From an uncultured Verrucomicrobiae bacterium (GTDB lineage: Bacteria; Verrucomicrobiota; Verrucomicrobiia; Palsa-1439): 64,000 nucleotides of DNA. The position numbers were made by a program, and so were the translations under genes. The stretch spans positions 128,001 through 192,000 of the forward strand of contig CAWEWF010000008.1 of assembly GCA_963812605.1 (NCBI GenBank), given 5' to 3'. Below the pieces are notes generated by a model. It did no database searches. It saw only the letters and a program-made list of their open reading frames with translations, and had not been told where the DNA came from. This document shows, in pieces, positions 9,836 through 36,102 of this stretch. Positions within the stretch are counted from its first letter, which is position 1. Each line of letters starts with the position of its first letter.

Positions 9836-10214
9836 GAGCGAAGAAGGTTTCAGTGATTTCGAATAATGTAATGTTCAAAACGTGCCAGTACCCAGCCTTG
9901 CGTAACCAGGGGGGTTATGGAGGCACGACAACCCGCGCCTTGGAACTTCCAGGGTAGAACGGCAACTCCTGAATCGACGGCGCTCACAATGGCGCCGGTG
10001 CCGACGGCAATATTTGGTCAAGATAATCCAACGGCTATTGACCAGATTATTTCCCGCATCCCGTGTGCGACACGCTTCCAAAGCGACAATTGGAGCAAGG
10101 GACAAGGGCACGCTCCGGTACAACCGGATTTCCCGCGTAGCCGCCGCGAGGATTTGGCTTGCATCGCACCTGGGTGCAACTATGATAAATTGTTGGCGTG
10201 GAGATCGCAGCGTT

Positions 10215-17322: not shown

Positions 17323-17334
17323 GGTGGAAAAATT

Positions 17335-18156: not shown

Positions 18157-18189
18157 GCACGGACCAAAATCCGGCTGAATTGAATCCGC

Positions 18190-20014
18190 TTAGAAGGCCT
18201 CGTAGCTCACTTTAAAATAGATGCCCAGGTCCTGCGCATCATCATTGGGAGTGGTGACCCTGTGGAGTCGGTAGCCCCAATACAGCTGCGCGTTCAGGTG
18301 CCGATTCGGGCTGATCAACAGCCCCATCCCGGCACTGAAAATCGTGGTTGGGTCCGGTGTATGTTCATCCAGGTTCCTCGCCGCGCCGAAATCGAAAAAA
18401 GGGGCCAACTGCACGACGGGAGTTCCCGTCCTGTCGAAAAGTACCGGCAAGTGGAGTTCGGCGGAACTAAAGACCCCTTCGTCTCGGACAATCTGGTTCT
18501 CCCGATAACCTCGGACGCTGTCGGCGCCACCCAAAGTGAATTGCTCCAGCGATAACAACGGTCGGTCTGTCAATTGAACATCGGTGCGCAAGATCAACTG
18601 GTTGGGGGTGCCAAAGAGACGGCGCACATAGTGGGCCTGGCCAAGCCACGCAAAGAAGTTTGCGTTCCGATCAGTGCCGTTATCCGTTACGTCGAACGCA
18701 TCGAGTCCCACGCTGAACGTGGAGCGCAAGGCCAGCACTTGTTCCTGACTGCGGTCAGTCCATTCCTGAATAATGCGCAGGGCCGAGATTTCGGTGACGC
18801 CATTGGTGGAGCCGGGAGAGATATCGAACGGGACCCCCAACAAGAAAGTCTTGCTGTACTCCCGTTCAAAGGAGACGGCAAGCGCCAGTTCCCGATTTGC
18901 CGTTTGGTAGATGGGCTGGCGAAGTGTCGCGCCAGCACGATACGACTCACTGGTAACGTCCAGAGGATTGAATGGTTCCTCAATCACCGCATAATCGTTC
19001 TTGTTACCGTAGATCCGAAGCGTCGTATCATAGGGGGTTAACGGAATCCGGTAGGAGGCCGAAACGTTGTTAAAGTCCGAGAATTTGTAGCCAGGGTTCC
19101 CTCCCTCGGCGATGCCGTAGGAAACCTCCAGGGGGTCAGCGTGCCCCGTGAGATTGATGTCCCGCGCGATGAGCAGAATCTCGTCGGAGCCGACACTTGG
19201 AGGACGGTCGTTGTCCACTTGAAGCCCGACTCGAAATGGCTGCTCGTCTCTCACATGAACGTCCAGCACACTTTTCCCCGGCATAACGTCAGGCCGGAGA
19301 CTCCGCGTTGATTTGGGTGATGTTCGGATCCTGCCGCAATAGTTGCAGCCCCTCCTTCAAATCGTCGGTATTCAGCGGGGTGCCGGCCCATCTCTCGACT
19401 CGGCCCCTAATGTAGCTATCGCGGAGCCATTTGTTTTCCGTCGTAATGTTGGTGGCGGAGATCACGCCTTCGATAATCTGCATGGTGACGACCCCATCTC
19501 GAGGATCCTGGTCCGGCAAAACAGCCCCGGAATTGATATAGCCGTGGCTGACGTAATATTCCGTCACGGCGCGGCGGGCCTCCTCCAATTCCTGGCTCGT
19601 GATTTGCCGCCCGACGTACGCCGCCGTGACTTTCGCGAGTTGCTGCGAGGAGAATACCTTGTTCCCTTGAAACCGGAATTCACGCACGTAGAGGCGAGGC
19701 ATCGAGGAAAGCTTGCTCTGCTCGACCGGAAGCCGCAAGGGCGGAGCAACCAATTCTTGCCCCTTCACGGGGATCGCCAGCAGGACCAGCGCACAGAAGA
19801 CAAGCCACTGCGGCTTGTCAAAAGAGGCACCGATCACCCGGCTTCCTGGGAGAGCCGCCAGACCAGCGGTGAAGACAGTCTCAGGTCGCTCGATTGTGCG
19901 GCCCGCTTGATCCGTTTTCGCCATGCGCATAGAACCAGTGTTCGTGCCAGTCAAACCGACTGCGCCTCTCCGCTTGGAAATCGGCTGATTAATAGCCCAA
20001 ACCGCCCCTAACAC
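18190..20014 (-). CDS. ShlB/FhaC/HecB (TpsB) outer-membrane transporter (frameshift near 19290; start uncertain)
   Basis: POTRA motifs FRFQGNKVFS and TEYYVSHGYINSGA..PDQ..IIEG; barrel motifs EQFTLGGADSVRGYREN and LAPFFDFG; terminal YEAF. ORFs 19289..20014 and 18190..19284 joined. Confidence 0.9.
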
Positions 20015-20098: not shown

Positions 20099-20966
20099 AT
20101 GGCAAAAAAAAGCGACGGAGACACGGCACTCCCCACCGGTGCGCCCGCAGAAACATTGAGTTTCATTACAGCGCTCTTCTTGACTCACTTCCCGGAGCGC
20201 AACACCGCATTTCTCACCGAGGCATTCAACCAGGTCCGGAATGCATTTGACGGCACCTATCCGGGTTACCAGGGCTGCGACACGGCCTACCACGACTTGG
20301 CCCATACCTGTCAAGCCGCGGTCGCGGCAGTACGCATTCTCGATGGGCACTGCAAGAGCGGCCAACCGCCCGTCCTGACATCCCGCGACTATGAACTGAG
20401 TGTTGCCGGGATGCTGCTGCATGACATCGGATTTCTAAAGGAAGTCGGCGACAACCTGGGCACTGGCGCCAAGTACACTCTCACTCACGTCGATCGCGGC
20501 GCGGACTTCGCGGCGAAATTCCTTCCCTCTTTGGGAGCGACACGGGACGAAATCCGTCAGGTGCAATTGTTGATTCGCAGTACCGCCATGAACGTGGACA
20601 TGAGCAAGCTTCCGTTCCGCGATCCACGAGAACGATTCATTGGATGCGCCGTTGGCTCCGCTGATCTTCTGGGGCAAATGGCGGCCCTGGACTACCCGGA
20701 ACGTCTGCCGAAGCTTTACCGCGAGTTCGCAGAGGCCGGCATGTTCTCACATCTGGCCAAAGGCGGATTGGCCTCATGCCAAAGCGCCGAAGATCTGTTG
20801 CGGGACACCCGGGATTTTTATCGCGGATACGCGCGACGCATGCTCGATCACGAGTGGGACGGTGTTTACCAATTGCTGAAATATCATTTCCCAGACGGTC
20901 GCAACCATTATGTGGAAGCGATCAGACGCCAATCTGGATCGGATCGATCAACTTTTGGGGAAATAA
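20099..20966 (+). CDS. HD-domain metal-dependent phosphohydrolase (possible cyclic-nucleotide phosphodiesterase)
   Basis: Motifs YHDLAHT, LLHDIGF, HVDRG, SADLLGQMA. Removing one base near 20924 gives ...EAIDANLDRIDQLLGK and a stop at 20966. Confidence 0.75.
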
Positions 20967-20983: not shown

Positions 20984-22122
20984 TTACCTGGCCGACCCAG
21001 ATTGACCCAGCCGTCGTTCAAAAGATCGAACCGTTTCTGAGAATTGCCCGGGGGTTGAAATCGGGCACCGATTGGACAAGGCTGAAGAGCCGGTCCAAAT
21101 CCGTGCGCGAGGCCCGGACCTCTGGACCGAGCGAGTCAACCAGTCTGTCGAGGGCGAGCACCAGGCGTTCGGCTCGGCAGGCCTGGACCTCACCCGGAAT
21201 GTCCTCAGCGGCAAACACCGGCCCGGTTGCGGCAAGCCGCGCCAGCATCAGGCGGGAACGCGCCGCCGACCACTCGATGGCAGTGGCGCGTTTGGCAAAC
21301 TCGTCGGACAGTGTCTGGGCTTGCGTTGCGTTCTCGGGTGTTGGCTCCAGTTTAAGTGACGACAGTGGTGGCAGAGTGGGGTCGTCGTCGGCCTGCTGCA
21401 GCACCCAGAGCACGGAACTCCAACGGGCCTTCAGGCGTGCGGTGGGCTGCGGGTCGCGGGCGAGTTGCCAGCTCAGTTCACGCAAGGCGACGGCCTGGCC
21501 GACAAGCCAGGTCTGCGCACCCGACCAGTTTGGGGCTTCGCGCCAGTGTTTGGGCTCGGTGACGCATTGGCCGTCGAGCTCGAAAATCAATTCGGGATGC
21601 CCGGCGCGCAGAAGATCGGCCCCAACATTTTGATGGCAGGCGATACAAGTATTGGCGCGTACGTACAGGTTCTTCAGATCGCGCATCCCGGCGGCGACAC
21701 GGTCGGCATGCGAGTAATCGGGGCGCGTATGGGAGCGCAGCCAGAATTCGCCCGCGCCGTGGCAGGATTCACAGGATACGCCATTGGTTACGTCGGTGGA
21801 TAGTGCCCGATTCAGCTTAAGCAGGGTTTGAAAGGGCGTATGGCAGACGGTGCAGCGCTCGTTTTGCGTGGGAATCTTCGATTCTCAGCGCATCAGCGAT
21901 ACGCTGGGATCGGGCAATGGTTAGTGTCGCATAGGAGCGCGAGTGAAAGTCCTTCTTGGACCAAACCTGGAATTGATCGCGATTGGCCTTGGCGCTGCCG
22001 TGACAGCCCGCGGTGCTGCAATTCTGCGAACCGAGAAATTGCGGCGATGGTGGCGTTTCGGCGCGGGCGATATGACAAAAGACCAGCGCCGTAACAAACG
22101 CGGTTAGGGATTTACTCCGCAC
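20984..22122 (-). CDS. Periplasmic tetraheme cytochrome c, c554/c552-like (frameshifted)
   Basis: Signal peptide; heme motifs CSTAGCH (CX4CH), CTVCH, CESCH and CIACH recovered across frames of ORFs 21817..22158 and 21018..21686; AGHPELIFEL motif; helical C-terminal domain. Confidence 0.8.
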
Positions 22123-22152
22123 CTCGGTTGTGTTAAACGAAGCACGCTGGAA

Positions 22153-23459
22153 ATGCAATCCATTATCGAGACGCTACAACGATGGACTGGCGGCAATCCG
22201 GGATTGGCAATCGGTTTTGTATTTCTCGGCGCTTTCACCATCCAGGTGGGAGCGCTGGCCATCTCCTCGGTAGCGCGCGCGTTCCATGATCACCGGCAGC
22301 GTTCGCTGGCGCGGGAACGCCTGCGGCTGCTCGTCCGGGCCGCGACACTGCATTGCGAGGAGGCCGGGCAGGCCCGTCTGCAGTGGAACGGCTATCGCAA
22401 GTTTCAGATTGCCCGCAAAGTCCGGGAGTGCGAAGGGGTCTGTTCGTTCTACCTGCAACCGCATGATCGCAAACCATTGCCTTCGTTCAAGCCCGGGCAA
22501 TACCTGACTTTTCAGCTCAACTGTCCGGGCCGCGACAAACCGGTCGTGCGTTGCTACTCCATCTCCGACAGCCCCCATCACACCGATTATTACCGCGTCA
22601 CGATCAAACGCGAAGGGCCGCCGCCGGATCAGCCCGACCTGCCGCCGGGTATCGCGTCCTCGCACTTCTGCGACGTCCTGCGCGAAGGTGACATCATCGA
22701 TGCCAAGGCCCCCGCCGGCCACTTCTGCCTGGACCTGGAAAAGACAACTCCGGTCGTGCTGATCTCCGCCGGGGTGGGAGTAACGCCGATGTTGAGCATG
22801 GCCAATGCAATTGCCGCGGGCGACTCCCAACGCGAGTGCTGGTTCTTCTTCGGGGCCCGCAACGGCACCGAGCACATTCACCGTGACGAGATCGAAGCTC
22901 TCGCGCGCGGCCGCGATAACATTCCATGTTCACGTCTGCTACAGCCGGCCGCGGACGGAAGACCAGACGGGTGTGGATTACAACCACAATGGCCGTGTCA
23001 GCGTCGAGTTGTTCAAGGAACTGTTGCCGTCGAACAATTACGAGTTCTACCTGTGCGGCCCCGGTGCATTCATGACAAGCATCACGGATGGCCTGCGCGA
23101 ATGGGGCGTGCCTGACAGCGCGGTGTTTTCGAGGCGTTCGGTCCCGCCACAGTCAAAAAGGCTACGGCGCGTCAGCGCCGGCGGCGGGCGCGCCTGCCGC
23201 GCCCGGCTTTCAGGTCACGTTTGGCAAATCGAAAAAGACCTGCGTGTGGCGTCCCGACCTGGGATCGTTGCTGGAGTTTGCCGAGCGGCAGGGGATCCGG
23301 ATCGAAGCCGGCTGCCGGGCAGGCAGTTGCGGCACCTGCCTGGTGGCCATCAAATCGGGAGCGGTGGAATATCTGAGCAAGACGGAAGCGCAACCGGAAG
23401 ATGGCTCCTGCCTCACCTGCATCTGCAAACCAAAAGCCGACCTGGTGCTGGACGCCTGA
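22153..23459 (+). CDS. Membrane-anchored FAD/NAD(P)H FNR-like oxidoreductase with C-terminal [2Fe-2S] ferredoxin (frameshifts near 22922 and 23128)
   Basis: N-terminal TM; FKPGQY, RCYSIS, APAGHF, SAGVGVTP, FYLCGPGAFM; ferredoxin CRAGSCGTC...CLTC. Confidence 0.88.
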
Positions 23460-25186
23460 TGGCCACCACCGCCCTAATCGTTGACCGACCGAAACGCTGG
23501 GACTCCGCGTTCGATCCAGGAATGACGGATGCCGATGTCGCGCGGCTGCTGGCGCTGGCGCCCTTCAGCCAGATGAAGGCTGATCGGTTTCCGCTGCGCG
23601 ACATCCTGCGCAACGACGCGCGGCTGCGCCGATTTCGCGCGGGCGAAATCATCGTGCGCGAAGGCGATTACGGCACGTCGGCGTTCATGATCATTCAGGG
23701 CGCCGCCTGCGTGGTGATCGCGCCGGGACTGCCTGAAGCACTGCTGGGCCGGCGCCCTCGACGCCGCAAAAACCCCTTGGCCGTGCTTGCGCAACTCTGG
23801 GCCAATGCCCGCCATCCGGAAGTCCGCCGGCCAGCCGAGTTGCGTGTGGACGAACGCTTGGGACAACGGGACGCCGGAGATGACGAGGTCCGCGTGTTCC
23901 TGCAAGACGTGCCGCGCGTGTTGGATGGCCGTCGCACGGCGTCGCTGGCGGCCGGTGAATTCTTCGGGGAAATCGCCGCGCTCAGTCGCGTGCCGCGCAC
24001 CGCCACCGTGTTCGCCGAAGTGGACGACACGGAGTTGCTGGAGATCCGCTGGCAGGGCCTGCGCGACATCATGAAAAAGGATGATGCGCTGCGCCGGCAC
24101 ATCGAGGACAAGTATCGTGAACGATCCTTGGAGACCTATTTACGCGCGTTGCCAATGCTGCGTCATCTCACGGATGCGCAACTGCAGGAGCTGATGCGCC
24201 AGACCGAGTTTGCCACCTTCGGCGAGTACGACTGGTCGGGCGATTACAAACGCCTGCTGCGCTCGGGCGGGATTGCGGGTCCCGGCAAGGAACCGGTGAT
24301 CGCGCAGGAAGGTGATTACCCCAACGGCGTCGTGTTCGTCCGCGCCGGGTTTGCGCGCCTGGGCCGGCGGTTCGGCCGCGGACAGCGCACGCTGAGCTAC
24401 CTCGGCGCCGGGCAGCACTATGGGTTTGAGGAAATCGCGCACAACTGGCGACGGAAGGACGCGCCCGTGCCGCTCCAACTCACCTTGCAGGCCATCGGTT
24501 ACACCCACGTCCTGATCATCCCAACGGCGGTGATGGAGGAACTGGTGTTGCCGACCCTTCCGCCGTCGCTGTTGCCTCCCCTGGTTGAAGCCGAGGCTGC
24601 GGCAGTTATTGAACCCCCGCGGCTGGGACAGCGCGATGCGTCGGCCAAACTCGGGCCGGACTTGCTGGAGTTTTTGACGGAGAATCGCTTCTTCAACGGG
24701 ACCGCCGCCATGCTGATCAATCTGGATCTATGCACACGCTGTGACGATTGTGTGCGCGCCTGTGCGGCAACCCACGACAATAATCCACGCTTTCTCCGCC
24801 ACGGGCCGGCCAGCGGCCCCGTCATGGTCGCCAACGCCTGCATGCACTGCGCCGACCCGGTGTGCATGATCGGCTGCCCCACGGGCGCGATCTATCGCAC
24901 GACATTTGGCGGACAGGTGGTCATCAATCAGGCCACGTGCATCGGCTGCGCCATCTGCTCCAACAATTGTCCTTACGACGCAATCCGTATGGTGGATATC
25001 CGCGGAACCGACGGCGCATTTCTCGTGGACAAAGACATGCGAGCGATCCAGAAAGCAACCAAGTGTGACCTGTGCGTCGACCAATACGGCGGCCCCGCCT
25101 GCCAGAGGGCCTGCCCGCATGGCGCACTGATCCGCGCCGACATGAGCGATGCGGATGCGCTGGCGACGTGGCTGGGGCGAGGATGA
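23459..25186 (+). CDS. Tandem cNMP-binding domains fused to a DmsB/NrfC-like 4x[4Fe-4S] domain
   Basis: ATG overlaps the upstream TGA. Canonical cNMP cassette GEFFGEIAAL..PRTATV; second, degenerate domain (QEGDYPNG..GQHYGFEE); Cys motifs CTRCDDCVRAC, CMHCADPVCMIGCP, CIGCAICSNNCP, CDLC..PACQRACP. Confidence 0.9.
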   Translation: MATTALIVDRPKRWDSAFDPGMTDADVARLLALAPFSQMKADRFPLRDILRNDARLRRFRAGEIIVREGDYGTSAFMIIQGAACVVIAPGLPEALLGRRPRRRKNPLAVLAQLWANARHPEVRRPAELRVDERLGQRDAGDDEVRVFLQDVPRVLDGRRTASLAAGEFFGEIAALSRVPRTATVFAEVDDTELLEIRWQGLRDIMKKDDALRRHIEDKYRERSLETYLRALPMLRHLTDAQLQELMRQTEFATFGEYDWSGDYKRLLRSGGIAGPGKEPVIAQEGDYPNGVVFVRAGFARLGRRFGRGQRTLSYLGAGQHYGFEEIAHNWRRKDAPVPLQLTLQAIGYTHVLIIPTAVMEELVLPTLPPSLLPPLVEAEAAAVIEPPRLGQRDASAKLGPDLLEFLTENRFFNGTAAMLINLDLCTRCDDCVRACAATHDNNPRFLRHGPASGPVMVANACMHCADPVCMIGCPTGAIYRTTFGGQVVINQATCIGCAICSNNCPYDAIRMVDIRGTDGAFLVDKDMRAIQKATKCDLCVDQYGGPACQRACPHGALIRADMSDADALATWLGRG

Positions 25187-25983
25187 ATTTCACTCTTAGA
25201 CGGGGGCTCAGCATCGCGGTCTTGATTACCGCAACGGTGGCAGTAGTCCTGTGGCGTCCGGCAACCGCGTATGCCAGCGGCTGGCTCTTGTTTACACTGA
25301 TGATCGCCCTGACCGTATTCAACGCGCGCAAGAAGCTGCCCTTCCTGCCGTTGATAAGTTCCGAGGCGTGGCTTCAGTTCCATATTTATGCCGGGTTGTT
25401 CTCGGCGGCGGTGTTTTTCGTCCACATCGGCTGGCGCGTGCCGCATGGCTGGTTCCAGGGCACGCTGACGGCGCTCTATGTTCTGGTGATGCTCAGCGGC
25501 ATCGTCGGGCTGGTGTGGTCGCGCACGTTCCCGAAACGGCTGACGACCCGTGGCGGGGAAGTGCTCTACGAACGGATTCCCGCGATTCGCCGCGCCCTGC
25601 AGGAACAGGCCGAGGCGCTGGCGCTGCCGCCAGTTGCCGAGGCGCGCTCGGTCATTCTCGTGGATTTCTATGCGGAGAATCTCGCGGGGTTTTTTGACGG
25701 CGCGCATAATTTCTGGCGCCACCTGCTGGAGTCCCGCGCTCCGCTCAACGAGTTGCTTGCCCGGACCGACAATCTCACCCGCTACCTCAACGACACCGAA
25801 CGTTCCACGATGGACAAAATCGCGGCGCTCGTGCGCCAGAAGGACGGGTTGGACTATCAGTATGCGTTGCAGGCAACTCTCAAAGGCTGGTTGTTCGTGC
25901 ATATTCCGCTGACATACAGTTTGCTCCTGGTTTCGGTCGTGCACATCGTGCTCGTGTACGCATTCTCCGGAGGCGCGCCGTGA
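25183..25983 (+). CDS. Integral membrane protein, ferric-reductase/cytochrome b-like with His-bearing helices
   Basis: ATGA overlap with the upstream gene; several TMs; His pairs WLQFHIYAG..FFVHIG and WLFVHIPL..VVHIV. Confidence 0.75.
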   Translation: MNFTLRRGLSIAVLITATVAVVLWRPATAYASGWLLFTLMIALTVFNARKKLPFLPLISSEAWLQFHIYAGLFSAAVFFVHIGWRVPHGWFQGTLTALYVLVMLSGIVGLVWSRTFPKRLTTRGGEVLYERIPAIRRALQEQAEALALPPVAEARSVILVDFYAENLAGFFDGAHNFWRHLLESRAPLNELLARTDNLTRYLNDTERSTMDKIAALVRQKDGLDYQYALQATLKGWLFVHIPLTYSLLLVSVVHIVLVYAFSGGAP

Positions 25984-27668
25984 GCGAACAGTTGCCGGCG
26001 CCTGAATTCGACGCTACGCAGTACGAACGTCCCAATTGCAGATGGATCTGCGGGCGGGCGGCGGAGGGCCATCCCTGCCGCATCGGGCCGGGGCCGCGCG
26101 GCGACTGCCGCGCCACGTCCGAATGCACGCCCGCGTTGCAGATCAAGCCGGGCGAAACCAAGGGCCGTTGGCGCTGTACCCGGCCCAAAAGCGCCGGCGG
26201 CCCGTGCTCCGAAGGACCTCTCCCCAATGGCGCTTGCAGCCATGTGATCCCGCCCTGCCAGCCGGTGCGCAGTCTGCGGGCCAAACGCGCTCTCGCCACC
26301 CTGTGGACGGTGGCTTTGACTCTCGGTGGTCTGCTCGTCGCGTTGTACGGCAATGCACGGTGGAATTTCATCACGCCCCGCGAACTTTCATCGCACCACA
26401 CTGGCGCCGCGTTTGAAAAATCGGTGAAACTCGCCCGCCGGGAAATAATTGCGCTGCCTGCCACACCGCCGCCCGCCGTGGTCCCGCAGGATGGGTTCAG
26501 GCGGCGTTGCTTGCCGAGCCGGGTCCGTTAGAGTGGGGGAAATTGTCAAGCGTCCCTGCGAAAACAATCACCCGGCTGGACCAGTCGTGTGAGCGCTGTC
26601 ACGCGTTGCACGAGTTTCACCAACCCAACGTCGGATGGAATTATTCGTGCTCCGCCTGCCACCGCGAACACGAGGGCGCCGGGCCGATGAAGGCGCCTGC
26701 GAACGCCGAGTGCTTGAGTTGTCACGGCAACGCCTCGGTGATGCAGGCATCGGTCGAAAAAGCCAGGACATTGCCGTCAGAAGCCTTTCACTATCACACG
26801 GTCGGAACCCGCGTCGCCTTCCAGACACCTCGGCCGCCGAGCGGGTACACCCAGGTGTTTCACTCGTTCGCAGATCATCCCGAATTTCAGGTGGTCGCGG
26901 AACATTTGCGCGATCCGGATACGCTGAAATTCAATCACCAAACACACTTGACCGGCAACATCCCGCTGCTCGATGGGCATAAGCTCGCGTGCGCCGATTG
27001 CCACAAACCGGACGCCACGGGCGCGTACATGCGGCCCGTCACCTACGAGGCCAACTCCCGGTCCTGCCACGCGTTGCAATTCGACGTGAACAACCCGGAG
27101 CTTCAACTTCCCCACGGAAATGCTGCCGCCGTCCGCGCCTTCCTGCGCAGTTTGCAGACCCAGTACGCCGACTTTGGCCGGCGCGTCAAAGGGATTACCC
27201 AGCAGCCGGCGCTGGAGGAATTCGTAGGACAGCAGATGGCCGCCCTTCACCAACAGGTACCGGACGGAGAAGAACTTGAACGCGAGGCCTATTTTAATAC
27301 GGCGCGCCAGGGTCCCGAATGGCCGGCCGCGCTACGCGGGCTGCGCCTATTGCCATGAGGTCAAACCAATGGGCGAGGGAACGCCTCTGGTCACGCCTCC
27401 GGTAATGCCCGACCGCTGGCTAACGGGCGGACGATTCGACCACGCCCGGCATGCCACGATGGCCTGCGCGACCTGCCACGACGCGCTGCACAGCCACGAA
27501 ACCGCCGACATCCTGCTGCCCTCCAAACAAGTATGCGCTTCCTGCCACAGTCCGCAGGGTGGCGCGTCCTCATCGTGTGCGAGTTGCCACAACTATCACA
27601 ATACACCGGTCACAGTGACGGATTTCGCGGGAACTTGGCGTACGGCGGACGCGCGCCCCGGAAAATGA
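25980..27668 (+). CDS. Membrane-anchored ~10-heme cytochrome c3-like protein with Cys-rich N-terminus (frameshifted)
   Basis: GTGA overlap; 9-Cys N-terminal domain; TM; CAACH, CERCH, CSACH, CLSCH, CADCH, degenerate SRSCH, CAYCH, CATCH, CASCH, CASCH across ORFs 25980..26531, 26507..27358 and 27276..27668; FNH/FDH c3-type His motifs. Confidence 0.85.
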
Positions 27669-29242
27669 TCTGGTCAGAGCGCAGCGCGGCGGGTGGCGCG
27701 AAAAGCGCCGCGCCTGACGCGGCAATCAGATCGTCCTGATCGACACCGTCGCCGCTGACGCCGAGCGCCCCAATCAGTACGCCGTTGGTGTACAAGGGAA
27801 ATCCGCCGGGAAAAATGGTGATGCCGTTTGGCAGGTTCGCTTGAACCCCGGGCGGTATGGTGACGCCGTTTGGCAGGTTCGTTTGACCCCCGGGCGATAC
27901 CGTGAGCAGCGCGTTATTCAGCGGATTGGTGGTCCCCGCAGGAAACGCCGAGAAATATTCCTGCAATCCCAAAAATGGCCCGTTGGTTGTCTTGGTGATC
28001 CCCGGTGGGTACAAGCTCTGCGCGAGAAACCCGACTGCCCGTGTGGAGTAGGCGCGATTCGCAGGCAAGTTGGGAGGAAATAGTCCCGCCGCCAGCGGGC
28101 TTGAGAAGAATAGTGCCGTTCGCGCCTTCTGCACCGAGACATCCCAACTGAAGATGGTGGCCTCGCCCACTCGAAACGTTCCGAGGACCTGGGGCGCGAC
28201 ACCGTCGGCGTTGGGGTTATTGATGACGGAGATGAACACTCTGGCCGATTGTCCTCGCGGCAAGCGGATGCCAGCCCTCGTCGTCGCGGCCCGCTGGGCC
28301 GCCACCAAAAGCATGTTGGTGACATCGGTCGCAGTCAACCGAGGCTGTCCATTGATCAGGCCCGGTAACGGGTCATCGATGATCGGCGAACGCACCTCGC
28401 CCGCCACGCCCCCCAGAACCAGCGGCGGATATTGCACGGTCGGCGAATTGGTCAGGGGGAAACCAGGCACGTTGGCCCCGATGCTGCCCAGTGACGCGGG
28501 AGGACTTGTCTCGGTGTGGCTCCGCACATACGGCAACCGGATGCCATTGATCAGCACGTGCGTCGCCAGGATCTTGCGGTCTGGCTGGAACCCCAGTTGG
28601 CCCGACAAGGCAACGTCTTCGTTGGTCGAGGGCTGGGATACATCTTTCACGAGGCTTTCCATATTACTGGCCATCGACAGGTCGTTGGGCTGTGCCACGC
28701 CCACGCCGCCAATTAGATTGGTGCTGTTCCTGTAAAGCGGAACGCCGCCGGGAATGCCATCCAGGCCACCCAATAGTGCGCCGATCACCGGCCCGCCGTT
28801 GGTTCCGCCGTTTTGTCCCGGCACATAGCCCGCCCGGATCCTTGTAGCGGTTGACATCCGAGAAGAAAAGGCTGGAGAAATTGACGCCCACCAACGGGCC
28901 GGTCGGGGTGTTGCGAATTCCGGGTGGAAAATGTTGTTGCACGATCATCAGGGCCGTGCGCGTGGTGAAGGCTTCCTGGTCGCTGCTCAGGAATGCCGCA
29001 GTGCCCGCTCGCGCGATCGCCTCAGCCGTGAGGCCGGTGGCCGGGAGCGAACCGTCGACGCTCCAGACGCCAAGCACGAACCCTTCCCGATCCACAACGG
29101 CAATAACGCTGTCGGGAGCGACGACGCTTGCTCTCGTGACAGCCTGGGAGATGACCGTCGTAACGTCGTTGGAGGTCATTTGTGAAAATACGATGGCGGC
29201 AGAGCCCAGCAGGACGCCGAGAACAAGGGTGAGCATTTTCAC
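27610..29242 (-). CDS. Secreted tandem GlcG/HbpS-like heme-binding protein (frameshift near 28838)
   Basis: Signal peptide; domain 1 IAVVDREG..ARAGTAAF..GGVPLY..IGGVGV; domain 2 QKARTALF..FPGGFPLY..IGALGVSGDGVDQDD. Confidence 0.82.
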
Positions 29243-29353
29243 AGCACGGAATTCTTACGACGAAGATTCCGTTGGCGGCAAGCCTAAACCGTCGTCGGGG
29301 ACCAGTTACAGCTTGATTTTTCCCGGCGATTGCAACACCCTCCTCACCTTAGA

Positions 29354-31559
29354 ATGACTAGGCGAGGAGGCGTTCTCGGCGTTTCATTAGGTTTTGCGGT
29401 CATCGCATCAGGCGTGTTGGCAGAACAGGCCGATCCGGACCGCCTCAAACCGCATCAGATTGTCAGCCATGGAACTCCGCCCATTTCCCCTGTCGCCTTC
29501 AGCCCCGATCCTCAGGGACTTCCCATACTCCCGCAGCCGCTCGAGGCCGCGCCGCTCACCTTGGAGGTCACGAATACCGTCAGTTCCGGCGCGCCGCCAT
29601 TGCCCCCGTCGCAGTTCAATCCCGATCCGGGCGCTACCCAAGTCCAAACGCCCGCTCCTCCCCCTCCGTTCTTCAAGCCGGAGTTTAGGCTGGGGCCGCT
29701 CTATGGCGAGGAGCCGGTCCCGGGAGCGTTCGCGCTGCCACGCTTCAGGACCGAAATGAAGGAAATCGTCGAGGTTGAACCGCGCTCCCCGCCCGATCCG
29801 CGACGCGAGCCGTTACCCCCGGTGCTCCAGCTCCCGCGCACAGAGGTGCGCGCCAATGAACGAATTCCCAATAAATGGGAGGAACCGGAATACACGCGCC
29901 AGCGCGAGCCGTTCGAGATCCCGACCAATACCGTTCCCGTGATTGACCGCTGGAAAGTGCCGTTTACTCCATGGCAGCGCTATACGGATCGCCCTGCCGA
30001 GACGCCCTACCAGCAAGCAAAGACGGCGTTGTGGGATCCGTACCAGCAGAGCGTCCTCAAGGGTGATGCGCCTATCATCGGCCAGGATATTTTTTTGGAC
30101 CTCACCGCTGTTTCCGATACGCTCTTTCAGGCGAGACGGTTGCCCACTCCCAGCGGTGTCAGCGCCCAGTCACCCGGCAGCGCGGACTTTTTTGGCAACG
30201 GCGATGAAGTGTTCATGTCCCAGAACTTCTCGTTTACCGCCGATCTGTTCAAGGGCGAGACGGTCTTCCAGCCGGTCCACTGGATGATCCGACTTGAGCC
30301 CGTCTATAATATCAACTATCTCTCAACCCAGGAGCGTGGTGTGGTCAGTCCCAACCCCGTGGACGGCATCGACCGGCTCCGGGAATATTTCGCCCTGCAG
30401 CAGGTCTTCGCCGAACTGCACCTCGGCGATCTGTCGGACAATTACGATTTCATCGCTTGCCGTGCGGGCAATCAGCCCTTCATTAGCGATTTCCGCGGAT
30501 TCATCTTCGATGATGTCAATCTCGGCGCAAGAGTTTTTGGGAATGCAGATAATAACCGCTGGCAGTATAATGTGATCGTGTTGCCGATGCGCGAAAAAGA
30601 CACTGATTCCGGTCTCAATACATTTAACGACCGCGATCAGTATGTGTTCATTGCCAATGCCTACCGCCAGGACTTTTTCACCCCGGGGTACACCACCCAG
30701 TTTAGCTTCCACGCCAACATTGACGATGGCCGCATCCATTACGACAGCAACGGCAATATCGTCAGGCCCTCCCCGCTCGGCACCGTTGTTCAGCATAGAC
30801 GTCCACGCCTATTACCTGGGGTGGACAGGCGACGGTCACATCGGCCGTCTCAATATCACCCACGCATTCTACGAGGCACTCGGACGCGACGACTTCAACG
30901 GGTTGGCGGGCAGACCCGTCACCATCAACGCCCAAATGGCCGCCGCTGAACTGTCCTACGATCGCGATTGGATCCGTTATAAACTGTCCTTGTTTTATGC
31001 CTCCGGCGACCACAACGCAGAAAACGGCACCGCTACCGGCTTCGACGGCATTGTCGACAACCCGGCTTTTGCCGGCGCGCCGTTCAGTTATTGGATCAGC
31101 CAGGGAATCAACCTCGCCGGCACTTCCGTCGCGCTGAAACAACCCGACAGCCTCCTGCCTAATTTGCGCACGAGCAAGACGGAGGGCCAGGCCAACTTCG
31201 TGAACCCAGGCCTGCTCCTTGCCGGCGTTGGCACGGATGTGGATATAACCCCAAAACTGCGGGGGTTTTTCAACGTGAATTATCTCCGGTTCGCCGATAC
31301 CGACGCGATCAAGACCGCGCTTCTGACCGACAAGGTCGATGGTGAAATCGGTTTCGATTGCAGTATCGGCGTGCGTTATCGGCCCCTGCTTACGGACAAT
31401 ATCGTCATTACCGCCGGCTTTGGCGTTCTTTTACCCGGCAGTGGATTTCGGGATATTTACGGGCGCGGCCCCATTCCCACGTCCAGCGGCGGGAGCCGCA
31501 ACGGCCAAACGGATGATTTCTTATACAGCGGTTTGGTGAAACTCACGTTCACCTATTAG
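29354..31559 (+). CDS. Outer-membrane beta-barrel protein with Pro-rich N-terminal extension (frameshift near 30798)
   Basis: Signal peptide; amphipathic strands (RAGNQPF.SDFRGFIF, YYLGWTGDGH, AELSYDRDW, FFNVNYLRF); terminal LTFTY aromatic barrel signal. Confidence 0.8.
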
Positions 31560-31562
31560 CCC

Positions 31563-34500
31563 ATGAACAAAAGTATACGCGCGGTTCTGTGTGGGACGGC
31601 CTTCGTGGTTGCCGCCACGCACGCCGTCTATGCTCAAAATGATGGATTCGGACCGCCCATCGCGGTATCGCGGGATCAACCCCCGCCCGTGACCAAACCG
31701 CATAATTGGATCGACCAGACTCCCCAAGAGGCAATGGCCAAGAGCCGCGGTTGCCTCGAATGCCACAAGGGCATCGAGGAGATGCACGCCTCGCCCTATG
31801 TGGTCCTCGGGTGCACCGATTGTCACGGAGGCAATGCCACCCCGGGCCTGACGATGCGCAAAGCCCACGTCCCCCCCAGCAATCCGATCTTCTGGCAGTC
31901 TTCGGCAAAACCCGTTATGTCCGACGTATTGCTCAATCATGAGACGAAGGAGTTCATCCAGTTCGTCAACCCCGCCGACCTGCGCGTCGCCCAGCAGGCT
32001 TGCGGACTGTGCCATCAAGAGTCGATTGACCACGTGCAGCACAGCATGATGAACCACGGGGCAATGCTCTGGGGCGCGGCTCTCTATAATAATGGTTCGC
32101 GTCCCGTTCAAGAATTACCACTACGGTCAGGCTTACGGGCCCGATGGCGAGCCGTTGCGGTTGATCAATCCGTATCCCCCGACGGCTGAAGAGACGCGCA
32201 CGAACGGGATTTTGCCTTTTATCGATCCGCTGCCGCGGTTCCCGTTGGGCCAGCCCAGTAATATTCTGCGTATTTTCGAGAAGGGCGGCGAGAAACAAAA
32301 CCAGCTCGGCATCCCGAATCCCGATGAACCGCCGGGTCATCCCGAACGACGGCTTTCGGAGCGGGGCCTGGGCACGCTCAACCGCATCGACCCGGTCTTC
32401 CTCAATTTGCAGAAGACCCGCCTGAACGACCCCTTGCTGGGATTCATGGGCTCAAACGATCATCCGGGCGATTATCGATCCAGCGGTTGCGCCGCGTGCC
32501 ACGTGGTCTACGCCAATGACCGTTCTCCCGCCAACTCCGGCTGGTACAGCAAATACGGCAACCAGGGCCTGAGCTTCACGGGCGATTCCCAGATCTCCAA
32601 AAGCGAGCGCGGCCATCCGATCACCCACCAGTTTACCCGCTCCATCCCCAGCAGCCAGTGCATGGTTTGCCACATGCACCAGGGCAATCTTTTTGTGAAT
32701 CCCTATCTCGGTTATACGTGGTGGGATCAGGAGTCCGATGGCGAGTTGTTCTATCCCGCGAAACAGAAGAACCCGACCGAAGCCGACCTGGCTGAATCGT
32801 TTCGCCGGAACCCCGAGGCTGCCGCCGCGCGCGGGCTGTGGGGCGACCTGGATTTTCTGGAGAAAGTTGCCGAGTTGAATCCGCAACTCCAGCACACGCA
32901 GTTGGCCGACTATCACGGCCACGGCTGGATTTTCCGTGCCGTCTTTAAAAAGGATCGTCAGGGAAATCTGCTCGACCTGGACGGAAAGATGATTGCCCAG
33001 GATGACTCGAACAAGTGGGCGAAGGCCGTTCACCTCAAGGACGTGCATCTCGCGCGCGGAATGCAGTGCGTCGATTGCCACTTCCTCAACGACGTGCACG
33101 GCAACGGCAATCTCTACGGTGAGCCGCGCGCCGCCACCAGCATCGAGTGCATCGATTGTCACGGCACCATCACACAGCGACCCACGCTGGTCACCTCCGG
33201 CAATGCCGGTCGATATGCCCTGACAAACTCGACCACATCCTTCGGCCCGCGCTTCGAGTGGGTCGGCAAAAAACTCTATCAGCGTTCCTCAATGAATCCC
33301 GACGTGCGTTGGGAAATCCCGCAGACGATGGACACGATTGATCCGACCTCGCCGCACTACAACGCGAAGTCCGCCTACGCCAAGACCGTGCAGCGCGACG
33401 GTAAGACATGGGGCCAGGCCAACTGTCCCGTGGCGCATGAGAACCGCAGTATCTCCTGCCAGATTTGCCACACGGCGTGGGCGACCAGTTGTTTTGGCTG
33501 CCACCTGCCGATGCGCGCCAACCAACGCGTGCCGACCAACAAGTTCGAGGGACTGACCAGCCGCAATTTTACCACGTACAATCCCCAGGTCGTCCGTGAC
33601 GACGTGTTCATGCTCGGGCGCGACGCCACCTACAAAGACCATCGACTGGCTGTGATCCGCTCTTCCAGCGCCGTGTTGGTGGGCTCGCAAAACGCCAACC
33701 GTGAATGGGTCTACTCCCAACAGCAGACGGTTTCGGCGGAAGGCTACAGCGGCCAGGCGTTCAACCCGCATTTCGCGCATACCACCAGCAGTGTCGGCAC
33801 GACCAAGAATTGCAGCGACTGCCATCTTTCCCAGCAGAACGACAACAATGCCTGGATGGCACAGCTCCTCGGCTTTGGCACCGGCACGGTGAATTTCTTC
33901 GGACGCTATGCCTGGGTCGGTTGCGGCGAAGGCGGCTTCCGCGCCGTCGTATGGACCGAGCCCACCGAGCCGGAGGCTGCCATCGGCAGTCATCTCCAGA
34001 AAATTGCCTACCCGGACAACTATCAAAAACACCAGGAAGCCGGCCGCGTTCTCTCGGAGGCCCATGAGCACCACGGCAGGGACATCCTCGATCTGACGTT
34101 GCGCGGAGAATATCTCTACACCGCCAACGGACCAGGCGGATTCGAGGTCTTCGACGTTGCCAATATCGACAATAAAGGCTTCAGTGAGCGCATCGTCTCC
34201 ACGCCGGTCTCACCCTTGGGCCAGCGCACGCATATACCCACGAAGTTTGCGACCAGCGTCGTGCTGCCCAGCACGCTCGGGATCGACCCGTTGCGCAAAC
34301 ATTTGCCTGAAAACGAAGAGCAACCGATCAACCCCATTTACGGCTTTGCCTATGTCACTGACCGCGAGGAAGGCCTGGTGATCTGCGGCGTTGGCACCCT
34401 CGTTGACGGCGATCCCGACAATAACTTCCTCGACAAAGAAAAGGTCGTGCGCTTCAACCCCGACGGCCGGCTGGATGGTGCCGTGCACGGTTACATGGCC

Positions 34501-35307
34501 GGCACCCATCTCTATGTCGTCTGCCGCCGCGGCCTCGAGGTTGTCGATATCAGTGACCCACTTCATCCGAAGATCGAAGGCGAACTAACTGATACCACGC
34601 TGAAGAACCCGCGCGCCATCGTCGTGCAGTTCCGGTATGCGTTTGTCGCCGACGATGAGGGAGTCAAGGTGCTGGATATCACCGATCCGTCGCACCCGCG
34701 CGCCGTACCGGGCGCAGTGGTTGCACTGGCTCATGCTGGTCGGCTCTATGCCGCACGCACCTATCTCTATGTGCCCGACGGCCCGGAGGGCCTGGCGATC
34801 ATCGATATCGAAAATCCCGAAAAACCGCGCCTTGACCAGATGTTCAATGCCAACGGCGTACTCAACGATTGTCGTGCCGTGCAGATTGGCAGTGTCAATG
34901 CTTCGATGTTCGCCTTGGCGGCCGACGGCACAAATGGGTTCCGCGTGGTGCAGCTCATCTCGCCCGATACGGTGCCCGGTTACATGGGCTTCAGCCCGCG
35001 CCCAAGTCCGAAGCTAATCGCAACGTACCCCATCCACGATGGGTCGGCCCTGGCCGTTTCGCGCGGCCTGGACCGCGATCGCGTCGTGGACGAAACCGGC
35101 AATCAAACCGTGGTCTTTGGAAGACGCGGTTCACGACCCTTCCACGTTGATGAGATGCTGTCCTTCTACCGCCATGGCGCGACCGGTGAACTTTATCGCG
35201 TCTCCGATGAGGTCGGCGGCGACCGGTTGCCGTTCACGCCTTTAGAACCGGCAGGAGTTAATGAGAGTCCGGCAGCGACCAGGCGTATTTTCCCTCGCGG
35301 AGAGTGA
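31563..35307 (+). CDS. Large decaheme cytochrome c with C-terminal LVIVD-repeat beta-propeller (frameshift near 32098)
   Basis: Signal peptide; CLECH, CTDCH, CGLCH, CAACH, CMVCH, CVDCH, CIDCH, CQICH, CFGCH, CSDCH; LVIVD repeats YLYTANG..GFEVFDV, GLEVVDISDP, YAFVADDEGVKVLDITDP, YLYV.DG.EGLAIIDIENP. Confidence 0.88.
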
Positions 35308-35328
35308 CCCCGGGCCGGGCAACAGGTG

Positions 35329-35874
35329 TCAGCGCCGCGCGGTACCACCTACCGCAGTCACGGTCTCGCAGGGAGTTTCACGTGCCCAGAAGCGTGAGAG
35401 CAGCATCGAGTCGATGTATTTTTTATCGACCGTACGCAATCGTGCGGCGACAGAACGGATGACTCCGAGCAGGAACTTGGCTCCGATTGCAGGATATTGA
35501 TCCAGTATGCTCGTGAACGCCTGCCTGGTAAGCTTGAGTAGTTTGCAGTGACGTTTTGCGACGACATCGGCACAGCGCGGTCCCTCGCTAAACAAGGCGA
35601 TCTCACCGAAGAAATCGCCGGTTTCGAGGGTTGCCAAGATCGTCTCGCGACCATTGGCGAATTCGCTGACGCGCACTTCACCGTCGAAAAGGAGGTACAT
35701 GCAATCGCCGGCGTCGCCCTTTTTGACAATGATTCGGTTTTGATCGATTTCACAAAACTCTATCAGCCCAAGGAACACTTTGGCCTGGTCCTCGGTCATA
35801 TCCGCAAAGACCTTCAGCCTGCGGAGGTGCGCGGGGGTCAAAGCCGAATTTTTTAAGGATTGGACATCTTTCAC
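35329..35874 (-). CDS. Stand-alone cyclic-nucleotide-binding protein (no HTH seen)
   Basis: IVKKGDAGDCMYLL..GEVRV, GDFFGEIALF..PRCADV. Probable GTG start at 35874 within ORF 35329..36099. Confidence 0.85.
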   Translation of the reverse strand: MKDVQSLKNSALTPAHLRRLKVFADMTEDQAKVFLGLIEFCEIDQNRIIVKKGDAGDCMYLLFDGEVRVSEFANGRETILATLETGDFFGEIALFSEGPRCADVVAKRHCKLLKLTRQAFTSILDQYPAIGAKFLLGVIRSVAARLRTVDKKYIDSMLLSRFWARETPCETVTAVGGTARR

Positions 35875-36102
35875 TGTCTGAATTCCAAGGCTAATAGGGA
35901 GAGTAGCAACTAGGGCACGGAAGGCAATACCAAAACTCGTCGGCCCTGGGAAACCACGGGTACATCGTGACCTCGTGGAGTAAAAACCCTGATTTGCAAC
36001 CAGTGCACGCTGAATGACCAGATGCAGGAATAGTGGTCGTGAGATTGACGTAGCTCTTCGTTGACGCTGCCGGTGATATAGGCCAGCATTCGCTTCCAAG
36101 AC

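Follow-up and report, generated by a model that had tools for sequence, protein, structure and literature searches.

A ptdCDEFG-like gene cluster with an alternative outer module in an uncultured Verrucomicrobiae bacterium, a putative cyclic-nucleotide-linked route for the export of electrons from NAD(P)H

What can a bacterium do with a run of adjacent genes that places a redox protein in the cytoplasm, in the inner membrane and in the periplasm or at the cell surface? This question is raised by a gene cluster at positions 20984-35874 of a 64,000 nucleotide window from an uncultured Verrucomicrobiae bacterium (Palsa-1439; assembly GCA_963812605.1, contig CAWEWF010000008.1, positions 128,001-192,000 of the forward strand), which an earlier note had read as a path for electrons from NAD(P)H (reduced nicotinamide adenine dinucleotide or its phosphate) to the cell surface, or the reverse, switched by a cyclic nucleotide. 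Coordinates are window positions unless another locus is named; the assembly has a size of 4.17 Mb and is 90% complete. Domains were assigned with Pfam on the open reading frames (ORFs) of the window, and with NCBIfam and Pfam on the intact orthologues of a reference locus (L013) from a genus-level relative with 86% DNA identity to the window. The nine genes were all present with the domain content ascribed to them, and no molybdopterin, hydrogenase or NrfA genes were found among the Pfam matches of the cluster, either in the window or in the L013 orthologues. We consider it fairly probable that the products of the cluster form a quinone-independent electron-export chain made of two separable modules, in which electrons would pass from NAD(P)H to multihaem cytochromes and from these to an outer module. 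By its composition, the cluster is best described as a ptdCDEFG-type transmembrane exporter with an alternative outer module, that is, a system of a named but untested kind.

The inner module is encoded at 20984-27668. A gene on the minus strand (20984-22158), with an uncertain start codon and divergent from the reductase gene that follows, encodes a secreted tetrahaem c554-like cytochrome with three CXXCH and one CX4CH motifs in the window, and its L013 orthologue matched Cytochrome_C554 (E 9.6e-11). The next four genes lie on the plus strand and are coupled by overlapping stop and start codons (TGATG at 23457-23461, ATGA at 25183-25186 and GTGA at 25980-25983), as had been noticed before. 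The first of them (22153-23459) encodes a membrane-anchored flavin adenine dinucleotide (FAD)/NAD(P)H-[2Fe-2S] reductase with an N-terminal hydrophobic helix and a plant-type [2Fe-2S] domain at its C-terminus; FAD_binding_6 and NAD_binding_1 were found in the window and Fer2 in addition on the L013 orthologue, and its top NCBIfam match was the reductase part of flavohaemoprotein (266 bits, below the cut-off). The second gene (23459-25186, unbroken in the window) encodes a cytoplasmic protein that combines cyclic nucleoside monophosphate (cNMP) and iron-sulphur domains, with matches to cNMP_binding (3.7e-22, over three stretches), Fer4_11 (5.2e-9) and several other Fer4 families. Its iron-sulphur domain contains 16 invariant cysteines arranged in four cluster motifs (C425-C435, C461-C473, C494-C504 and C536-C552), which corresponds to 4x[4Fe-4S].

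The third coupled gene (25183-25983, also unbroken) encodes a membrane protein that is predicted to act as a dihaem b wire. Two histidine pairs, H67/H81 and H240/H254, were invariant in 23 of 23 sequences, the members of each pair being 14 residues apart on one hydrophobic helix, and a conserved KKLPFLP loop as well as an insert of ~120 residues lie on the side taken as cytoplasmic. The nearest Atlas cluster bears the automatic name 'ferric reductase like transmembrane component' (0.95), PF14358 was assigned to one of 120 relatives among the matches listed, and the profile of the protein gave nothing significant against the sequences of the Protein Data Bank (PDB). The last gene (25980-27668) encodes an anchored decahaem c-type cytochrome with ten CXXCH motifs in the window, including a CAACH just behind a frameshift, and with matches to cytochrome c3/c7 families in Pfam. 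Its orthologue has a transmembrane helix at residues 104-122 and a cysteine-rich, cytoplasmic N-terminus, in which eight cysteines before the helix are conserved in 53 orthologues.

Several of these genes are interrupted by frameshifts in the window, and the possibility that they form a decaying set of pseudogenes in this genome was considered. When compared with L013, the window carries 11 uncompensated insertions or deletions (indels) over the ~15 kb of the cluster, whereas a control stretch of 14.4 kb of the window compared with the same relative has 30 indels of a length other than a multiple of three, of which about three were judged uncompensated within genes, all in one gene. Indels are thus denser in the cluster than in the control stretch, yet they are not unique to it. 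The breaks fall in a flanking HD-domain gene (~20924), the tetrahaem gene (~21047 and 21873), the reductase gene (22923/22924, 23130 and 23163, so that it changes frame three times), the anchored decahaem gene (26439-26443 and 27318) and the three genes of the outer module described below (28833, 30797 and 32099). In L013, by contrast, each gene is a single frame: 433 amino acids (aa) for the reductase with Fer2, 574 aa for the cNMP/Fe-S protein, 266 aa for the membrane protein, 562 aa for the anchored decahaem, 532 aa for the double GlcG protein, 742 aa for the barrel and 1244 aa for the decahaem-LVIVD protein.

The correction of these frames was checked on contigs from three soil-metagenome runs of one study, at least 99% alike to the window, some stretches of which are uncovered in one or more runs. 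At seven of the 11 indel sites (21047, 21873, 22924, 26439, 27318, 28833 and 30797) the short-read contigs carried a one-base change that removed the break; the remaining four (20924, 23130, 23163 and 32099) were without a row in this comparison, contig cover there not being shown. The frame-restoring changes had a depth of 2.2-3.8 and came from a single contig each, except that at 30797, which was seen in two runs, and such lone differences may themselves be errors. Nevertheless, all seven sites with a row gave a frame-restoring change, no nonsense codon was found inside the corrected frames of the cluster genes, and the protein identity between the window and L013 was 77-93%, mostly equal to or above the 86% DNA identity. 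Moreover, the rpoC gene of the same assembly is split into two overlapping frames (model positions 2-320 and 316-1144; G000:C14:799698-803670), while rpoB is one open frame. Because the short-read contigs carry one-base changes exactly at the sites predicted from the orthologues and rpoC is split as well, the breaks in the cluster are consensus errors of the assembly and the genes are intact in the population. The pseudogene explanation, which the density of the indels had favoured, was therefore dropped as extremely improbable.

The earlier note had proposed complex modelling of the inner module. When the membrane protein was docked with the complete cNMP/Fe-S protein, the median ipSAE was 0.65 (0.64-0.66 among runs), against 0.00 for the best of three controls; the runs shared at least 93% of their contacts and the pLDDT (predicted local distance difference test) of the partners was at least 72. 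A value of 0.65 is reached by 116 of 157 solved complexes and by two of 215 mismatched pairs, a benchmark that is only rough here since our own alignments were used. The predicted interface brings the first and fourth cluster motifs (residues 422-456 and 542-556) against residues 50-64, 113-129 and 230-234 of the membrane protein, which flank H67 and H240. This model supports an Fe-S domain that is docked to the membrane protein from the cytoplasmic side, binding being backed by it rather than demonstrated, and the predicted pose fits a path from a [4Fe-4S] cluster to an inner haem (H67/H240) and then to an outer haem (H81/H254). The domain content, the four invariant histidines and the docking model together argue for a route from NAD(P)H to the periplasm.

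The outer module is a trio of genes at 27610-35307. The first (27610-29242, minus strand) encodes a secreted double GlcG/HbpS-like protein (HbpS-like match of 1.2e-14 over two stretches); the N-terminus of its 532-aa orthologue resembles a signal peptide. The second (29330-31559, plus strand) encodes a predicted outer-membrane beta-barrel. In the AlphaFold2 (AF2) model, 18 strands were predicted over residues 254-740, where most 10-residue blocks had a pLDDT of 63-88 with lower values in loops, the mean of the whole model being 56. A Foldseek search with this model gave AlgE chains as the top solved matches (E 3e-11, target-normalised template modelling score of 0.44-0.49), followed by MOMP and OprD-type porins, and no MtrB chain was found among the solved matches of ranks 1 to 50. 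The neighbours of the barrel in the Atlas are automatically named alginate export, and no Pfam family was matched at E<=0.05, PF13372 included. The barrel is preceded by an N-terminal extension of ~250 residues (29330-30080), proline-rich, with two copies of a conserved PP.SP..F.PDPG motif and a pLDDT under 50, which might span the periplasm or bind the propeller of the next protein.

The third gene (31563-35307, plus strand) encodes a secreted decahaem cytochrome with an LVIVD/YVTN-type propeller. Its ten haem motifs are all ordinary CXXCH, without any CXXCK, and the LVIVD match was 8.3e-19. In the AF2 model the propeller has seven blades, with 10-residue blocks mostly at a pLDDT of 80-93, and it resembles 3dsm, YncE, BtuG and 1l0q in Foldseek, that is, generic propellers. 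Identity was 63-75% among 16 orthologues within the phylum and ~50-54% to Planctomycetota. For the haem domain at least 1626 shorter relatives were found, ~50-55% identical, mostly partial or contig-end fragments, all hypothetical or generic in name and labelled Acidobacteriota, Planctomycetota, Gammaproteobacteria, Bacteroidota and other phyla. The sole named family match of this cytochrome was ExtM of Geobacter (61 bits against a cut-off of 800), and its profile gave nothing significant against PDB sequences. A literature search for a beta-propeller multihaem cytochrome with an alginate-export-type barrel returned nothing relevant as judged by titles and the opening lines of abstracts; LVIVD and multihaem proteins do meet in a Tenderiales case, in which the LVIVD protein is separate and non-haem. 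In one genome, a gene for a 151-aa '23S rRNA-intervening sequence protein' lies between the barrel and the LVIVD cytochrome (L098:12088-12543).

In order to see whether the parts belong together, as had been claimed, a survey of core loci was carried out with the cNMP/Fe-S protein as bait on contigs of one genome per species. At least 572 stretches had a relative, and the best 80 loci were examined; by their taxonomic labels nearly all belonged to Verrucomicrobiota and a few to Planctomycetota. Over the loci with sufficient flank (at least 3 kb upstream for the tetrahaem gene), the cNMP/Fe-S gene was linked to the reductase gene in 67 of 71, to the tetrahaem gene in 52 of 62, to the membrane-protein gene in 74 of 75 and to the decahaem gene in 68 of 69. 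The barrel gene was located directly upstream of the LVIVD cytochrome gene, on the same strand, in all 24 loci showing both. Twenty-eight core loci were fully flanked (at least 9 kb on both sides); 15 of these had the barrel or the LVIVD cytochrome, nine had GlcG and seven a CHASE2 cyclase. At one locus (L015) six genes, from the reductase through the decahaem-LVIVD protein, are contiguous on one strand. We also scanned 300 Verrucomicrobiota genomes, and the LVIVD cytochrome was found in six, the Fe-S protein (cut-off E<=1e-60) in ten and both in four, always within ~8 kb on one contig.

The association was also found in Planctomycetota, where the LVIVD cytochrome was detected in 23 of 201 sampled genomes. 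Seven of these loci were inspected in detail: the barrel was adjacent in six, GlcG was present in six, and five had a cNMP/Fe-S-like match within 20 kb, in which cNMP_binding and Fer4 were confirmed by Pfam in the three tested. At one of these loci (L115) there is an unbroken run of genes for the barrel, LVIVD cytochrome, tetrahaem, cNMP/Fe-S protein, membrane protein and decahaem. The core proteins of Planctomycetota are ~30% identical to those of Verrucomicrobiota and their gene order differs. Both the near-universal linkage of the core and the recurrence of core and outer genes as neighbours in two phyla, in different orders, bear out the claim that the parts belong together, and indicate two separable modules whose linkage is recurrent across two phyla but facultative. 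The cluster is carried by strain IMCC26134 (L079, complete genome), so cultured carriers appear to exist. Beside the LVIVD cytochrome of several Planctomycetota we found 15-haem cytochromes with an N-terminal FHA/YscD-like cytoplasmic domain (L113:1191-3317, L114:17837-19972, L116:137-2149 and L118:621-3359), through which a transmembrane multihaem protein may be connected with phosphothreonine signalling, the domain standing in place of the cysteine-rich N-terminus seen in the window.

The cyclic-nucleotide switch of the earlier note found support in the first cNMP domain of the Fe-S protein, which has the phosphate-binding cassette FGE..A...R.PR[ST]A, with FGE..A..R.PR at least 95% conserved in 74 orthologues; in the degenerate second domain PR[ST]A is missing. 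Only two Guanylate_cyc matches were found in the 4.17 Mb assembly, both on this contig and within ~26 kb upstream of the cluster (16714-17295, and ~3 kb before the window), and two of the four cNMP-binding proteins of the assembly are encoded in the cluster. Cyclase genes were present in 13 of 93 related loci, a density of 8.6 per Mb; the background used for comparison was that of the present assembly, 0.48 per Mb. The conserved cassette and the local concentration of cyclase and cNMP-binding genes thus support a cyclic-nucleotide control of the electron path, although the gating itself is inferred. The cyclase within the window (15337-17322, plus strand) is a CHASE2 protein with a class III adenylate/guanylate cyclase domain (CHASE2 2.2e-53, Guanylate_cyc 2.1e-22) and lies outside the cluster. 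It was rejected as a strict cluster member, as it was seen in just the seven fully flanked loci mentioned above and sits in a TPS/CHAT/DUF928 group, and it was kept as a candidate source of the cyclic nucleotide.

On these grounds we propose the following order of events. The membrane-tethered flavoprotein would oxidise NAD(P)H and pass the electrons through its own [2Fe-2S] cluster to the four-cluster ferredoxin-like protein, which would be seated on the cytoplasmic face of the dihaem b membrane protein. The two b haems, if bound as predicted, would move the electrons across the inner membrane to the anchored decahaem and the soluble periplasmic tetrahaem, the order of these periplasmic carriers being our tentative one. 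The secreted decahaem-propeller protein would then receive the electrons, working with the AlgE-like 18-strand barrel and the secreted double GlcG protein, where the barrel may either admit a small or polymeric acceptor to the cytochrome or anchor the cytochrome at the outer membrane. Binding of cAMP or cGMP (cyclic adenosine or guanosine monophosphate) to the cNMP domains of the Fe-S protein would open or close the path. Such a control would be useful because electrons flowing outward cost the cell reducing power as well as membrane potential.

In principle, electrons could pass through these parts in either direction, and the reverse path had been left as an option by the earlier note. Extracellular or periplasmic donors, for example Fe(II) or reduced humics, would then provide the electrons for NAD(P)H. 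By standard bioenergetics, electrons entering in this way would have to overcome the inside-negative membrane potential as well as the redox step up to the NAD(P)+ couple, and the cluster contains no NrfD-like or bc-type subunit or other element coupled to protons or ions. The reductase, besides, is closest to reductase domains that oxidise NAD(P)H. We therefore regard the inward direction as very improbable, reverse flow being opposed by redox and membrane potential alike, and outward export is the direction considered from here on.

Several observations weigh against the proposed export chain. In its inner part, the membrane protein reached only sub-threshold scores with the Pfam models DUF4405 (15.4 bits, cut-off 26.7) and Ni_hydr_CYTB (16.2 bits, cut-off 30.1), and the docking result, obtained with our own alignments, could reflect a likeness to solved Fe-S/cytochrome b complexes. 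With respect to its control, the nearest cyclase is located within a TPS/TPR/CHAT/DUF928/ShlB group that is possibly its real partner. The union of the two modules is also incomplete: 13 of the 28 fully flanked core loci had no outer genes within ~10 kb and, in the sample of 300 genomes, six of the ten with the Fe-S protein lacked the LVIVD cytochrome and two of the six with the LVIVD cytochrome lacked the Fe-S protein at E<=1e-60. Another genome (G340; its completeness is not given) has the core and no match to the LVIVD cytochrome. In the outer part, the haem region of the LVIVD protein (residues 1-750) was modelled from an alignment of 17 rows with a pLDDT of 20-40 in AF2, so that it may contain a catalytic site. 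Furthermore, the signal peptide of the verrucomicrobial LVIVD orthologues is a plain one that lacks a lipobox, which points to the periplasm, and an 18-strand barrel, as modelled, is too narrow to sheathe an MtrA-like cytochrome.

One explanation for the incomplete linkage is that the modules are independent neighbours, the core feeding other periplasmic acceptors and the trio being fed from elsewhere. Each module does occur alone in the 300-genome sample, and the GlcG-barrel-LVIVD trio is kept at loci without a core match at E<=1e-60 (L098 and L099). Among three verrucomicrobial genomes without outer genes at the core locus, two (G338 and G339) carry the outer pair on a contig different from that of the core. 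In G083 and G335 the trio adjoins FAD_binding_1/NAD_binding_1 reductases instead, and a class III cyclase lies beside the trio in the two genomes of the sample that have the LVIVD cytochrome only. This explanation does not account well for the finding that the modules were within ~8 kb of each other in four out of four genomes of the phylum sample holding both, for the six-gene same-strand run of L015, or for the recurrence of the association in Planctomycetota, where the core is ~30% identical and the gene order is another. We consider it improbable and keep the export chain of two separable modules as the preferred reading.

A more serious doubt concerns the outer membrane. The earlier note had pointed to barrel-multihaem conduits of the MtrAB type as known systems, while finding the present proteins unlike MtrA and MtrB; MtrB is a barrel of 26 strands. 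Because the barrel of the window was modelled with 18 strands and is AlgE-like rather than MtrB-like, a conduit of the Mtr type is not supported here. Since a barrel of 18 strands is not the equivalent of MtrB, the conduit idea is at its weakest in the step across the outer membrane, and it has a serious rival in a periplasmic enzyme served by a solute channel. According to this rival, the decahaem-propeller protein would reduce a soluble substrate, the AlgE-like barrel would be its channel and the ptd-like core would supply low-potential electrons, none of which would leave the cell. The AlgE fold, which is that of a polymer or solute channel, fits this well, as do the plain signal peptide without a lipobox and a weak local match of the LVIVD cytochrome to octahaem nitrite reductase (E 0.0016); its conservation (63-75% within the phylum, ~50-54% to Planctomycetota and ~50-55% in other phyla) is also more enzyme-like than wire-like. 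An enzyme of this kind is harder to reconcile with ten haem motifs that are all of the ordinary type, with a protein that reaches no family cut-off, with a propeller whose closest solved folds are surface or binding proteins and not enzymes, and with the lack of conserved candidate substrate-specific genes nearby in the loci examined. Although a real possibility, we find it doubtful.

The most far-reaching form of the export chain would be an envelope-spanning 'electron overflow valve' gated by a second messenger: when cAMP or cGMP rises, redox and membrane potential would drive electrons of NAD(P)H along the Fe-S clusters, a pair of b haems and 24 c haems to the decahaem-propeller at the 18-strand barrel, from where they would be dumped on humics or metal oxides. 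We regard this extension as rather unlikely. If it were true, the decahaem-propeller and its barrel would let electrons out through the outer membrane in a new manner that has no relation to Mtr, Pcc or Cyc2, and polysaccharide-fermenting Verrucomicrobiota and Planctomycetota could discharge electrons on humics or metal oxides. Of the path to the surface that had been proposed at the outset, the leg from NAD(P)H to the periplasm is supported by domains, histidines and docking; an exit of the Mtr type is not supported, given the 18-strand, AlgE-like barrel model.

Should the export chain hold, electrons of NAD(P)H would reach periplasmic or extracellular acceptors with the quinone pool bypassed and under a cyclic-nucleotide switch, neither of which belongs to the studied Mtr, Pcc and flavin-based pathways. 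The protein families abound in Verrucomicrobiota and Planctomycetota from soil, peat and freshwater, with at least 1583 relatives of the membrane protein. The route could bear on the disposal of electrons by abundant polysaccharide degraders where habitats are anoxic and rich in humics and, through this, on the balance of CO2 and methane. The modular arrangement, with one inner module and alternative outer partners, offers a concrete experimental handle.

The genes bordering the cluster were also analysed. On its right side, a small single-domain cNMP-binding protein (35329-36099, minus strand; cNMP_binding 5.8e-23 over residues 118-202), whose true start is probably well inside the ORF, had been taken as the gene that closes the cluster. 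The gene is there, but it is not a conserved member: a match was found in one of the 80 loci (L075), and it was discarded as lineage-specific. On the left side, an HD-domain protein and possible phosphohydrolase (20099-20966, plus strand; frameshift at ~20924; NCBIfam Npun_R2479 HD family, 2.1e-11, far below the cut-off) was likewise discarded, with a match in one of 80 loci (L018) that is on the same contig as L013 and hence not independent of it. The region directly upstream (10014-20014) encodes a TPS secretion domain, a TPR protein, a CHAT protease-like protein, the CHASE2 cyclase, DUF928 and a ShlB/FhaC-type transporter with POTRA, the last being split in two adjacent frames, probably by another assembly frameshift. 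Downstream, a gene on the minus strand (37296-39044) encodes a secreted protein of 582 aa with repeats of ~40 residues (…SPSGSYTNLYSF.G.P.DGA.P.AGLVQG.DGNFYGTT…) followed by two Ig-like repeats, for which no Pfam match was obtained at E<=1e-4. Also downstream, at a distance of a few kb from the cluster, there is a fragment of the phage integrase family (39852-40766), close to the point where similarity to L013 ends (35207).

How does the cluster compare with known systems? In MtrCAB of Shewanella and OmaB/OmbB/OmcB of Geobacter, an outer-membrane barrel is adjacent to a decahaem cytochrome and a multihaem protein makes the link to the inner membrane. The window has a barrel gene beside a decahaem gene and further multihaem cytochromes in the same way, but its barrel is predicted to be of 18 strands and AlgE-like instead of a large barrel that encloses a decahaem, and its LVIVD cytochrome, a propeller-bearing protein of 1244 residues, stays under the cut-offs of the MtrA/DmsE and MtrC models. 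With the MtrA/DmsE model (TIGR03508; cut-off 192 bits) only the tetrahaem and the anchored decahaem scored, at 15-21 bits, and the LVIVD protein gave no match; the Mtrc-MtrF domain was sub-threshold, and the verrucomicrobial orthologues, lacking a lipobox, differ from MtrC-type lipoproteins. Neither does the cluster include a quinol dehydrogenase of the CymA/NapC type, the input being predicted from NAD(P)H through Fe-S clusters and the dihaem b protein.

The Hmc and Tmc complexes of sulfate reducers join a periplasmic multihaem c, a membrane cytochrome b and an Fe-S protein in a transmembrane electron path. The NCBIfam models of HmcB, TmcA and QrcC gave sub-threshold matches only, far below the cut-off, and the window differs from these complexes in having no NrfD-like or HdrD-like subunit, an Fe-S protein that is cytoplasmic and bears cNMP domains, and NAD(P)H as the putative donor. 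With the AlgE/Alginate_exp family the barrel shares the 18-strand fold in its model (mean pLDDT 56), but not PF13372 or polysaccharide-synthesis neighbours, its neighbours being cytochromes and GlcG. Similarly, the Fe-S protein has the four cysteine motifs of DmsB, NrfC and HybA, the DmsB model being its top NCBIfam match (62 bits against a cut-off of 214), yet it does not reach the equivalog level and lacks their periplasmic, Tat-dependent partner enzyme. Its first cNMP domain has the cassette of the CRP/PKA type.

A closer parallel for the inner membrane is found in the four-His cytochromes b (MsrQ, PepSY-like, DUF4405 and FezC), for which the accessible text of a study reports haem b binding experimentally shown for two members (PMC11334425). 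In the class described there, with Fre-MsrQ, NOX/ferric-reductase-domain proteins, DUF4405, PepSY-like proteins and FezC, a cytoplasmic NAD(P)H flavoprotein feeds a membrane protein that has four central histidines on two helices, outward and free of quinone, as proposed for the window (PMC11334425). The histidine pairs of our protein agree with those of the class (~13 residues apart, each on one helix), whereas its scores remain under the cut-offs of the family models. The window also departs from this class in having an additional carrier, the four-cluster Fe-S protein with its cNMP domains, on the proposed path from flavoprotein to membrane protein, in having a decahaem c cytochrome as acceptor, and in the ~120-residue cytoplasmic insert of the membrane protein.

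Within the same phylum, He et al. (2017) described, in the part of their article available, verrucomicrobial clusters proposed for extracellular electron transfer (EET), in which a porin of 20 or more strands neighbours a periplasmic cytochrome that has eight haem sites, and they listed IMCC26134 among the genomes holding homologues of their clusters (PMC5615132). The accessible text of Fiorito et al. (2026) proposes the verrucomicrobial porin-multihaem clusters EET3 and EET4 for extracellular electron transfer (bioRxiv 10.64898/2026.05.27.727921). The phylum and the idea, a barrel with multihaem proteins for humic-rich anoxic habitats, are shared with our cluster, but propeller, cNMP and 4Fe-4S do not appear in the available texts of either work, and EET4, for which the text gives no composition, may or may not be the same cluster.

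The nearest known counterpart is ptdABCDEFG, a putative operon reported in the accessible portion of a preprint from marine Alpha- and Gammaproteobacteria, Nitrospirales and Planctomycetes (bioRxiv 10.1101/2023.11.21.568154). Its products are given there as a pentahaem cytochrome with a beta-sandwich, a porin, an FAD/NAD(P) oxidoreductase, a tetrahaem cytochrome, a cNMP/4Fe-4S protein, a ferric-reductase-like membrane protein and a decahaem cytochrome, respectively, which were proposed to form a porin-cytochrome complex whose function is called 'completely unknown' (bioRxiv 10.1101/2023.11.21.568154). The same five kinds of proteins as PtdC-PtdG are encoded at 20984-27668 of the window, with C, E, F and G in the same order, a match that relies on composition and order as given in that portion of the preprint and not on its sequences. 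The reductase resembles PtdC in its FAD_binding_6, NAD_binding_1 and Fer2 domains; the tetrahaem resembles PtdD, a periplasmic tetrahaem, in its three CXXCH and one CX4CH motifs and its Cytochrome_C554 match; the cNMP/Fe-S protein resembles PtdE in its cNMP_binding domain (3.7e-22) and 16 invariant cysteines; the membrane protein resembles PtdF in its four invariant histidines on two helices, with the Pfam cut-offs not reached; and the anchored decahaem resembles PtdG in its ten CXXCH motifs. For PtdE, the preprint, as far as accessible, counts two 4Fe-4S clusters, whereas the 16 invariant cysteines of the window protein indicate four.

It is in the outer part that the two arrangements diverge. 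Where ptd has PtdA and PtdB, the window has the barrel, the decahaem-propeller protein and the double GlcG protein, and no five-haem gene was found in its cluster. A paralogous, canonical ptd-like cluster of a relative (L016) provided candidates for PtdA and PtdB, assigned by haem count and position only. Neither was found when they were used as queries against the 90% complete assembly, and in hhalign they matched the window barrel with a probability of 0.3% and the LVIVD cytochrome with 49%, locally, over 65 columns. That paralogue cluster is adjoined by a gene for an MscS-type channel fused to a cNMP-binding domain (L016:17184-18701), a further receptor for cyclic nucleotides next to genes of this kind. 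The comparison suggests that the outer trio replaces ptdAB, so that one inner module would pair either with PtdAB or with the barrel, decahaem-propeller and GlcG proteins. The statement of the earlier note that no characterised system has this composition thus holds in that none has been characterised, and gives way in that the core of the cluster matches, by composition, the named ptdCDEFG.

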